From the NCBI GenBank assembly GCA_934254675.1, contig CAKQLP010000003.1, forward strand, positions 93,631-157,630: a stretch of DNA of 64,000 nucleotides, given 5' to 3'. The notes under the pieces are model-generated. The model saw only the letters and a list, made by a program, of their open reading frames with translations. It was not told where the DNA came from and ran no database searches. Made by a program: the position numbers and the translations under genes. Shown piece by piece: positions 3,340 through 3,506 of this stretch. Origin of the DNA: an uncultured Alphaproteobacteria bacterium (GTDB lineage: Bacteria > Pseudomonadota > Alphaproteobacteria > RF32 > CAG-239). Position 1 is the first letter of the stretch. Every line of letters begins with the position of its first letter.

Positions 3340-3506
3340 CTGAGGTTTGGTAGCCTCATTTTCACGCGTCTGTATGTTTAGACGTTAAATCAGCATACCT
3401 TCTAGCAAATGGCTGGAAGGTAGCAGAATATGCTATTTGCTAATATGCTACACTATTTCGTGAAAATTAGTTACCAACTTCCAGCTACCGTTTTCGGTGG
3501 CTTTTA
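3340..3506 (+). ncRNA. candidate structured small RNA ending in an intrinsic terminator (identity unknown)
   Basis: Nested complementary segments: ggtag...ttttcacg (3350-3367) pairs with cgtgaaaattagttacc (3459-3475), tagcaaat pairs with atttgcta, and ccttc pairs with gaagg. A terminal hairpin agctaccg/cggtggct is followed by a T-run at 3483-3510. This 360-bp region is non-coding. Confidence 0.3.

Follow-up and report, generated by a model that had tools for sequence, protein, structure and literature searches.

The window analysed here, a 64,000-nt stretch of an uncultured alphaproteobacterial genome (CAG-239; contig CAKQLP010000003.1, positions 93,631 to 157,630), contains a 261 bp non-coding gap (3278-3538) bordered by a DivIC/FtsB-type gene (2963-3277; PF04977 in matching contigs) and a pilin-like open reading frame (ORF) with its ATG at 3539. 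The gap, which a sequence-only reading of this DNA had put at 360 bp, bears an RNA element that was flagged there from position 3340 as a possible small RNA (sRNA), a 5' untranslated region (UTR) attenuator, or both. Our analysis places the predicted start of the RNA earlier, at about 3322, with an extra 5' hairpin included, and describes the element as a leader of the pilin-like gene (Table 1).

The plus strand of 3330-3512 has a minimum free energy (MFE) of -64.1 kcal/mol, compared with -39.4 +/- 3.7 kcal/mol for 200 dinucleotide shuffles (z = -6.6; no shuffle equalled it), and the minus strand of the same segment has a z-score of -4.9 against dinucleotide shuffles. GC content is 0.35-0.40 inside the element and 0.21-0.29 in its flanks, and a terminator scan returned 3483-3502 as the sole terminator-like site in 2800-4400. 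The fold z-score, the raised GC content and the single terminator-like site show that the long-range pairing and the terminator are real. The complementarity between 3350-3367 and 3459-3475 that had been noticed from the letters alone belongs to a longer closing stem (P1a and P1b), whose upper portion it makes up, the several local stems reported there correspond to P0, P2, P3 and P4, and the terminator-like hairpin has a stem of 8 pairs, 5 of them G-C, followed by TTTATTTG. A further helix proposed at the time, tagcaaat with atttgcta (3404-3411/3436-3443), is present in the window copy but shows no covariation beyond shuffles in the family, where UAGC/GCUA alone is conserved; it competes with P3 and P4a. 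As that reading had also held, the element does not fit a tRNA cloverleaf: ARAGORN (tRNA and tmRNA) was blank at the flagged region. A scan of the window copy against Rfam for 6S RNA, signal recognition particle (SRP) RNA and other sRNAs returned no match at gathering scores, with only chance-level matches to csRNA and small nucleolar RNAs at E <= 10 in a 421-nt search.

Table 1. Features of the window copy of the leader, and of related pilin-like genes. Positions refer to the window unless a collected contig or locus (L number) is named; RBS, ribosome binding site; aa, amino acids.
Feature	Position	Strand	Sequence and remarks
Predicted sigma-70-type promoter	3286-3314	+	-35 TTTACT (3286-3291), 17-nt spacer, -10 TAAATT (3309-3314)
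Predicted transcript start	G3322	+	7 nt past the -10 hexamer; first nt of P0
P0, 5' hairpin	3322-3341	+	GGATAAAC GATA GTTTGTCT; 8 pairs, 96% of cells paired, covarying
P1a, 5' strand	3342-3354	+	GAGGTTTGGTAGC; pairs with 3470-3481
Alt-1 hairpin	3342-3345 with 3354-3357	+	first 4 nt of P1a with CCTC; covaries
P1b, 5' strand	3358-3366	+	ATTTTCACG; pairs with 3459-3467; hypervariable among copies
P2 hairpin, J2/3 and pseudoknot partner	3367-3398	+	P2 at 3367-3384, J2/3 TTAAATC; P2 stem covaries
Pseudoknot	3392-3398 with 3372-3378	+	AGCATAC with P2 loop GTATGTT; permutation test
P3 hairpin	3399-3419	+	segment A CTTCTAGC (3399-3406), loop AAATG, segment B GCTGGAAG (3412-3419); 8 pairs
P4 hairpin	3420-3451	+	GTAGCA/TGCTAC; conserved internal loops GAATAT / TAATA
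J4/1, P1b 3' strand and TTAG	3453-3470	+	CTAT (3453-3456), CGTGAAAAT (3459-3467), TTAG (3467-3470)
Alt-2 hairpin	3453-3470	+	CTAT with (A/T)TAG; would loop out the P1b 3' strand
P1a 3' strand and segment C	3470-3485	+	P1a 3' strand 3470-3481, overlapping segment C CTTCCAGC (3478-3485)
Intrinsic terminator	3483-3509	+	AGCTACCG TTTT CGGTGGCT, then TTTATTT; terminator scan
RBS	3522-3528	+	AAGGGAG; upstream of ATG 3539
Pilin-like ORF	ATG 3539 to TGA 4261	+	240 aa; motif G|RSMLEMFGVLAIIGILSIGGMAGYSKAM
(CT)7-type starts of window paralogs	27096-27055, 50290-50249, 54194-54153	-	(CT)7 at 27072-27059, 50266-50253, 54170-54157
N-terminal repeat extensions	26760-27000, 49990-50200, 53850-54090	-	also in ORFs downstream in L020, L021, L036, L038, L044
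Third-class loci (inverted repeats)	L010 ~4770, L028 ~5760, L033 ~507, L041 ~2803, L047 ~1329	-, +, +, +, -	

The leader belongs to a family. A search pattern of three conserved segments, which fixes A, B and C in most copies of the subfamily termed type 1, was run on the GTDB species-representative genomes and returned 49 loci, 45 of them related. These 45 lie in about 13 gut metagenome-assembled genomes (MAGs) labelled Alphaproteobacteria, or in bins with implausible labels, and the highest copy number is nine loci, found in each of two bins. A covariance model (R1), whose shortened calibration makes its E-values rough, yields 137-185 bits on the strand of the gene and no more than 31 bits on the reverse strand. 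Weaker R1 matches, at 28-66 bits, form a second subfamily, type 2, which shares the architecture, promoter, terminator and downstream pilin-like gene of type 1 and differs from it in the sequences of P3, P4 and C (B is GGACGGAUGU and C is ACAUCCGCC); segment B starts with GGA in type 2 and with GCU in type 1. In all, 73 leader copies were aligned. Every copy with readable downstream sequence precedes an ORF that starts like MKQNQFG|RSMIEMLGVLAIIGVLSVGGIAGYSKAM and is variable in its C-terminal part, and across the family the orientation is fixed and the start codon lies a median of 53 nt (45-61) past segment C. The window itself holds one copy: no second leader was found in the 64 kb with a 23-mer allowing 3 mismatches, with the pattern or with the covariance model. 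The element showed no similarity to sequences in a plasmid database and had no match in viral contigs.

The window's exact LolD protein was found on human-gut metagenome contigs (Hadza, Nepal and other cohorts). Of 22 contigs with identical LolD, L002 and six similar ones are without both the element and the pilin gene. In these contigs (L002, 4110-4200), ftsB and dsbD are about 85 bp apart, and unrelated sequence stands in place of the whole promoter-leader-pilin unit of about 980 bp (window 3278-4261). A diverged allele, L005, carries compensatory changes in the closing stem. AT-rich contigs with the leader and the pilin-like gene also occur in bins titled Bacteroidaceae bacterium, [Ruminococcus] gnavus and uncultured Eubacteriales (L007, L011, L014, L017, L020, L021, L029, L030, L033, L036, L038, L043, L045, L046, L049, L051 and L052). 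Some leaders are identical between such bins and Alphaproteobacteria MAGs (L029 = L031, L045 = L028), and the implausible titles probably reflect mis-binning or contamination. The four remaining pattern matches, in Rhodobacterales (L018, L039, L040 and L048), were rejected as unrelated conserved sequence. They come from a stretch of about 220 nt that is nearly identical in Paracoccus, Sedimentitalea, Meridianimarinicoccus and Pontivivens, a high conservation across genera.

The pairings are conserved in the related copies of the leader, with covariation in the closing stem, the local stems and a set of alternative helices. The form compatible with termination (terminator or T form) consists of P0, P1a, P1b, P2, P3 (segment A with segment B), P4 and P4a, 52 pairs in total. 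It was examined on a MAFFT alignment of 46 distinct copies (A4), with the structure written from the alifold result and by inspection. Standard pairs occupy 97.4% of the pair cells of A4, versus 35-44% when the partners are slid by 1-3 columns. Double changes are seen at 25 of the 52 pairs (221 cells, a count that overstates the number of independent events, as the copies are paralogs from a narrow clade), and at 39 of 52 when all 73 copies are used. None of 500 shuffles of A4 reached the observed value on four of five measures, and eight did so for further pair types.

Change is unevenly spread over this structure: P1b is saturated with it, whereas hardly any is seen in the junctions, in P3 or in the internal loops of P4. 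Seven P1b positions each show 3-5 pair types, with a double change in 29-42 of 71 distinct sequences. P1a swaps among G-C, C-G and A-U at A4 alignment positions 29/30/31/33, and P0 replaces A-U by G-C and U.G by C-G. P4 is 100% paired, with double changes at five of six pairs on the 73 copies; the distal P4a stem is truncated in the window copy and covaries in others. P3 is 100% paired and invariant in type 1, an invariance partly set by the search pattern; in type 2, and in copies detected by means other than the pattern, its pairs do covary. The pseudoknot between the P2 loop and J2/3 has a mean duplex energy of -4.21 kcal/mol within the same copy versus -2.51 kcal/mol for permuted partners (0 of 2000 permutations equalled it), and in several copies, such as L017, L023, L024 and L027, a short P2 loop (3-5 nt) goes with a shortened J2/3. 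A tally of the per-pair counts of A4 gives G.U pairs in 287 of 2314 pair cells. These G.U cells, together with the strand-asymmetric R1 scores, indicate that the functional molecule is the plus-strand RNA. Docking of a GNRA tetraloop into an 11-nt receptor between P3 and P4 was considered and rejected: the C-GNRA-G loop occurs in 24 of 73 copies only and the receptor-like loop is wrongly oriented.

Three helices incompatible with the T form covary as well. These are the hairpins Alt-1 and Alt-2 and a pairing of segment B with segment C (B:C), in which GCUGGAAG and CUUCCAGC form a perfect 8 bp Watson-Crick match. Besides taking part in B:C, segment C lies at the base of P1a and at that of the terminator. 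In the 73-copy alignment (A6), which was fitted to the T form and not to Alt-1, Alt-2 or B:C, these helices are 96.6% paired, versus 28-50% in slid controls, and 8 of their 16 pairs show double changes. No shuffle of A6 reached the observed value on four of five measures, and 2 of 500 did so for the number of pairs with a double change. Alt-1 occurs as GGGG/CCUC, GAGG/CCUC, GGGG/CCCC and AGGG/CCCU, and Alt-2 as CUAU/AUAG, CCAU/AUGG, CUAU/AUGG and CCGU/ACGG. One Alt-2 pair is U-A in 49 copies, C-G in 19 and U.G in 3, and another is A-U in 57 and G-C in 14; the fourth pair is a U.U mismatch in the window copy.

B:C covaries between the subfamilies (GACGGAUG/CAUCCGCC) and in single copies (ACUGGAAG/CUUCCAGU and GCGGGAAG/CUUCCUGC), where segment A changes to match. 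In two copies a change in B is thus matched in both A and C (L085, CTTCTGGT / ACTGGAAG / CTTCCAGT; L090, CTTTCTGC / GCGGGAAG / CTTCCTGC). Where A:B contains a wobble or a mismatched pair, B:C consists of Watson-Crick pairs throughout, and this is so in both subfamilies. When B:C is forced in RNAfold, Alt-1 and Alt-2 form unaided and the result is a three-way junction of B:C, P4 and Alt-2. Alt-2 and P1b appear to be mutually exclusive, since the loop that would have to cross the 7-9 bp P1b helix in an H-type pseudoknot geometry has just 1-3 nt.

The helices B:C, P4 and Alt-2 had been derived before a likeness to a known RNA emerged. All 12 type-2 copies tested have a sub-threshold match to sRNA-Xcc1 (RF02221) of 29-36 bits in Rfam E-value mode (gathering score 53), the best with E = 0.0016 in a 231-nt search, and the C4 antisense RNA model (RF01695) reaches 22 bits on type 2 against a gathering score of 45. 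All of these matches cover the stretch from B to C. In the alignment of L116, the closing stem of the model corresponds to B:C, its hairpin 1 to P4 (with internal loops of the AAUA type) and its hairpin 2 to Alt-2. The covariation of B:C, P4 and Alt-2 therefore supports a three-stem fold of the C4 type, with a closing stem and two hairpins. C4 RNA is a three-stem antisense RNA cut from an operon leader by RNase P; one of its loops is variable and confers specificity, and another masks an RBS (PMC5320573). In the leader, segment A and the P1a and P1b 5' strands, which lie upstream, pair with this 3' domain and would be functional analogues of the a1b1 elements; the c4-a1b1 model (RF03163) is weak on L012 (13 bits, E = 0.65).

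The structured region is bracketed by conserved signals. Across 69 distinct upstream regions, CTTTAC(T/A)TT is kept at -37..-29 (T-35 in 97%, T-34 in 96%) and TAAAnT at -13..-8, with a 17-nt spacer between the hexamers and P0 starting 7 nt past the -10. All 46 type-1 copies have a terminator, a 6-8 bp hairpin that starts from the (A)GC of segment C and is followed by T4-8, with a free energy of about -6.5 to -10.8 kcal/mol (the script parsed one copy wrongly). The stems of these terminators come in five or more distinct sequences with compensating changes, and type-2 copies have terminators too. An alternative antiterminator, in which GGTAGC (3351-3356 or 3419-3424) would pair with the GCTACC of the terminator, was discarded, as the terminator arm past CCAGC varies freely. 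No promoter-like site was found between the terminator and the ATG in the window, which suggests that the pilin-like gene depends on read-through.

We propose that the element is a two-state terminator/antiterminator leader with a C4-like core that controls the downstream pilin-like gene, a reading to which we assign a probability of roughly 0.62. The leader, of about 185 nt and with its own predicted promoter and terminator, probably decides by refolding whether transcription enters the gene. In this model, window positions 3286-3538 would act as a self-contained control unit. Transcription from the sigma-70-type promoter would begin at about G3322, the first ~165 nt would fold as the leader, with the terminator directly 3' of it, and the pilin-like gene would be transcribed solely via read-through. 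In the T form, 3342-3366 would pair with 3459-3481 as P1a and P1b, A with B as P3, and the P2 loop would be engaged in the pseudoknot; segment C would be tucked into the base of P1a, the adjacent terminator hairpin would form and the gene would be OFF. In the antiterminator (AT) form, the P1 strands would be trapped in Alt-1 (3342-3357) and Alt-2, and B would pair with C to close the three-way junction with P4 and Alt-2. B:C would thereby take the AGC at the base of the short terminator stem beside the U-tract, and RNA polymerase would read through into the gene (ON). The ratio of the two forms would be set by an effector or by co-transcriptional kinetics, candidates being a small ligand, a protein, or a trans-acting RNA, including a released C4-like domain, on nascent leaders. 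The much greater stability of the T form suggests that the default state is probably OFF. We infer that the transcript ends lie where predicted and that an exchange of the two folds in vivo sets the level of read-through.

The attenuator half of the sequence-only proposal has thus held up, given the fixed distance from leader to pilin-like ORF, the terminators in 46 of 46 type-1 copies, the lack of an intervening promoter-like site and the covarying pairing that overlaps the base of the terminator; a small RNA may nevertheless be released as a by-product or second function of the leader.

Several observations weigh against this reading. By nearest-neighbour energies the T form is favoured by a mean of 14.9 kcal/mol (7.6-19.0) with the terminator hairpin included, and by an estimated ~6-7 kcal/mol without it, so that the AT form would need an effector or kinetic control. 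B:C overlaps the basal 2-3 nt of the terminator stem and no more, and P3, a local hairpin, forms first and must be displaced. The covariation of B:C amounts to few independent events (the split between type 1 and type 2, L085, L090 and the variants within type 2), cell counts overstate independence since the sequences are paralogs, and segments A, B and C were preset by the first search pattern in most type-1 copies. The transcript start, its stop and the read-through are all predictions. The likeness to sRNA-Xcc1 and C4 lies below the gathering scores, and type-1 copies, including that of the window, gave no match to these families at E <= 10. Finally, no GGDEF or PilZ motif was found in the 596 kb of collected sequence, a weak negative which leaves cyclic di-GMP (c-di-GMP) without support as a ligand.

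One competing explanation, which we consider unlikely, is that the leader is mainly the precursor of an antisense RNA like C4 or sRNA-Xcc1. The 3' domain (~3412-3485 plus the terminator) would be cut out or released and would act in trans through the hairpin-2 loop, that is the P1b 3' strand, as phage P1 C4 does, with cis control secondary or absent. The consistent sub-threshold matches of type 2 over B to C fit this explanation, as does the hairpin-2 loop, which at ~10-13 nt and hypervariable resembles the C4 specificity loop a' (PMC5320573). The GGA at the start of type-2 B fits the GGW at the C4 RNase P site, and Acinetobacter baumannii is known to have C4-like sRNAs that occur in multiple copies and are processed out of longer transcripts (PMC5320573). 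In addition, the very stable T form should cause most transcripts to terminate, which would yield an abundant small RNA. However, a duplex test of own versus permuted partners (positive control 0/3000) detected no target like a2 or b2 within 130 nt downstream, at the RBS, for the variable loops or the P1 strands, and the only copy-specific complement of the hairpin-2 loop is the upstream P1b 5' strand of its own leader. The scores below gathering and the unmatched type 1 also count against it. The leader is, moreover, strictly linked to its gene, which has no other promoter, and this points to an action in cis even if a trans-acting RNA is made as well. We therefore take C4 and sRNA-Xcc1 to be the nearest fold on record and perhaps distant kin of the element, without assigning it to their family.

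A classical small-molecule riboswitch, for example for a cyclic dinucleotide, would be a special case of the two-state leader, in which P1-P4 and the pseudoknot form the aptamer and B:C with the terminator the expression platform; we regard it as improbable to a similar degree. Riboswitches for c-di-GMP control type IV pilin genes, such as pilA1 of Clostridioides difficile, and so provide a precedent. The leader has a covarying, conserved structured domain upstream of a gene, with a multi-helix junction, a pseudoknot, and junction and internal-loop nucleotides that are conserved while the stems drift to saturation; a terminator follows directly 3' and mutually exclusive terminator and antiterminator pairings are present. 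Yet no known riboswitch or leader family of Rfam 15, c-di-GMP-I and c-di-GMP-II included, matches it (apart from chance-level matches, tRNA and one rpsB sRNA elsewhere were returned), the associated genes are solely pilins and give no metabolic clue to a ligand, and the GGDEF and PilZ negative above applies here too. Some copies vary in, or do without, the P3 loop, the P4a loop or the pseudoknot, and the energy gap between the two forms is large. The rpsB sRNA match (RF01815) lies in the related contig L033 at 4483-4579 (+) and scores 41 bits against a gathering score of 40.

That the leader is a passive 5' UTR element, either an mRNA stabiliser or a translation tuner with a leaky terminator, giving fixed low expression without switching, seems to us doubtful. 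The T form is very stable and is the MFE structure in 44-46 of 46 copies, and no effector has been identified, all of which would suit such an element; but the covariation of three helices that the T form excludes, and the changes in B that both A and C track, leave the conservation of a second fold, or of ~100 nt of primary sequence, hard to explain. A DNA-level element is very improbable. On this account the leader would be a repeat of the MITE (miniature inverted-repeat transposable element) or REP (repetitive extragenic palindrome) kind, or a homology block for recombination between pilin paralogs, with incidental hairpins. Its multiple copies, the high similarity of leader and N-terminal coding region between paralogs, the many metagenome contigs that end a few hundred bases upstream of the genes, and the presence or absence of the whole unit between strains would agree with that. 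Against it stand the G.U cells, which would be A.C on the other strand, the far higher R1 scores on one strand than on the other, the fixed orientation and distance to the gene, the conserved promoter and terminator that bracket the element, the compensatory changes that keep helices while their sequence is randomised, the absence from viral contigs and the single copy in the window. The other half of the sequence-only proposal, an independent sRNA such as 6S (RF00013), taken here as a single-copy housekeeping RNA, shares with the leader its length (~165-185 nt) and a long terminal closing stem, but is refuted by copy number (up to nine per genome) and gene linkage (the element is pilin-linked in cis and missing together with the pilin gene in some strains), the interior being a multi-branched P2/P3/P4 junction with a pseudoknot, not a central bubble, and no 6S, SRP, tmRNA or RNase P match being found at E <= 10.

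The protein encoded downstream of the window copy has no Pfam match itself. Over its N-terminal 45 aa it is 64% identical to the paralog at 26105-26995(-), which passes the Pfam cut-offs for the type IVb pilin families PilS_N (44 bits) and Bundlin (40.6 bits). The prepilin-type motif G|RSM(L/I)E is present in the window copy, and TIGR02532 matches relatives weakly (14-15 bits against a cut-off of 16.3). To sample this gene family, 80 pilin-like genes were chosen from at least 522 metagenome relatives by similarity of the protein, not of the RNA. A covariance-model search found an R1 leader upstream of 28 of the 80. Two more are contig-edge fragments with the segment C motif, one of which (L134) is by eye a complete type-2 leader overlooked by R1. 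A (CT)n tract past the start codon occurs in 14, and a promoter-like segment flanked by inverted repeats in another 14. Eight have other upstream sequence, including L112, by eye a degenerate type-2-like copy, and 14 have too little upstream sequence to classify. Overall, about half of this large gene family appears to be preceded by the leader. Many of the metagenome contigs (L056-L135) end within a few hundred bases upstream of the pilin-like gene. We suspect that assemblies break at the conserved leader and N-terminal repeat, and the leader copy numbers per MAG are probably underestimates.

The three other paralogs of the window are of the (CT)7 type and have no leader RNA (GRSMIEM motif at 26713, 49925 and 53751, minus strand). 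Each has an RBS followed by ATG AAA AAT AAG CT(C/T) A(G/A)C AAA GGT (CT)7 G TAA, a frame that runs into a stop; for the paralog at 26105-26995, frame arithmetic indicates that a tract of (CT)6 or (CT)9 would join the ATG in frame to the long pilin ORF. The pattern is suggestive of slipped-strand phase variation, in which case all three genes are OFF at present. In a third class of paralogs, a conserved segment of just under 200 bp lies directly before the RBS TAAGGAGGAATAAG ATG and is flanked by the inverted repeats GTGTGTAAAAAAAACGACCG and CGGTCGTTTTTTTTACACA; it looks like an invertible promoter (an inverton or fimS-like switch). One pilin-like gene family thus appears to be under three different control devices. 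An orthologous pilin-like gene (MFDYLN...) in L092 and L104 (~1380-1500) is without all three and has a plain promoter-like TTGCAA-N17-TATA(C/A)T, and a minority of family members may be constitutively expressed. Many of the pilin-like ORFs have long N-terminal extensions with repeated short inverted-repeat units, such as gtcattctcgga(c/t)ttgttccgagaatccat and ggatactcgggtcacgcccgagtatgac, which translate as ...RRERSELSGESRNIK... and SVIFGLVPLILV. They resemble small repeat elements that were inserted between the start codon and the prepilin motif, or have been retained there in frame.

Slipped-strand repeats and invertible promoters (fimS and the invertons of gut bacteria) are phase-variation devices of surface-protein families. 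Such devices occur here on sibling genes of the same pilin-like family, and their position on those siblings suggests that the leader shares their niche, the ON/OFF control of individual paralogs; it would act at the RNA level, with no heritable change in DNA. A rather speculative extension, which we think improbable, is a locus-specific RNA-level switch in which the C4-like 3' domain released from an active locus pairs in trans with nascent leaders of the same locus through its hypervariable loop, blocks the T form and sustains read-through. If true, each paralog would hold an expression state of its own that reinforces itself; the mechanism would parallel, in RNA, the (CT)n and invertible-promoter switches, and would represent a cellular domestication of the phage C4 immunity module.

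If the two-state terminator/antiterminator reading is right, the leader is a new complex cis-regulatory RNA family from an uncultured and little-studied lineage of human-gut bacteria, with at least 522 associated genes on metagenome contigs, and one in which comparative evidence backs both folds of the switch and not one alone. It would indicate a connection of terminator/antiterminator leaders with the C4/sRNA-Xcc1 fold, about whose roles in cells little is established. Three devices within one surface-protein family would form a natural test bed for comparing RNA-level with DNA-level ON/OFF control of surface variation, and the leader would open a way to study how Alphaproteobacteria of the gut express pili or adhesins.

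Among known systems, leaders of the trp type (1:2/2:3/3:4), T-box and PyrR leaders and the c-di-GMP-II riboswitch of C. difficile pilA1 serve as terminator/antiterminator or riboswitch platforms. The element resembles them in its order, a promoter-proximal structured leader followed by an intrinsic terminator and then an RBS, and in its logic, as B can pair upstream with A or downstream with C and the downstream pairing overlaps the terminator; pilA1 is an example of a pilin gene under such control. Unlike them, it has no T-box specifier, T-box sequence or Rfam match (a PyrR match on L012, at 21.8 bits, is at chance level) and no leader peptide, the only candidate seen by eye being a non-conserved 4-codon ATG ORF (ATG TTT AGA CGT TAA), and it serves a multigene family with one copy per gene. 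With C4 and sRNA-Xcc1 the leader has in common the three-stem fold, a hairpin 1 with A/U-rich internal loops of the AAUA type, a variable hairpin-2 loop, an RNA embedded in the leader of its own unit, and the possibility of many copies in one genome (PMC5320573). Upstream segments are complementary to segments of the RNA itself, and the P1 strands would thus play a part analogous to that of a1b1 in C4. It differs in the intrinsic terminator right after the domain, in the lack of a detected downstream a2/b2-type target overlapping the RBS, in its genes, which are chromosomal and pilin-like and not phage antirepressor genes or integron cassettes, and in its hosts, gut Alphaproteobacteria. A pilin-associated leader motif was not found in the literature searched by full text or in two large motif catalogues, and the supplement of Fremin & Bhatt has only short motifs near pilin genes, from other or unassigned taxa. 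The family, which corresponds to no Rfam 15 family at threshold, is new, as are its gene association and its two-fold covariation; the kind of system, a leader with terminator and antiterminator forms that may go back to a C4-like antisense module, is already known.

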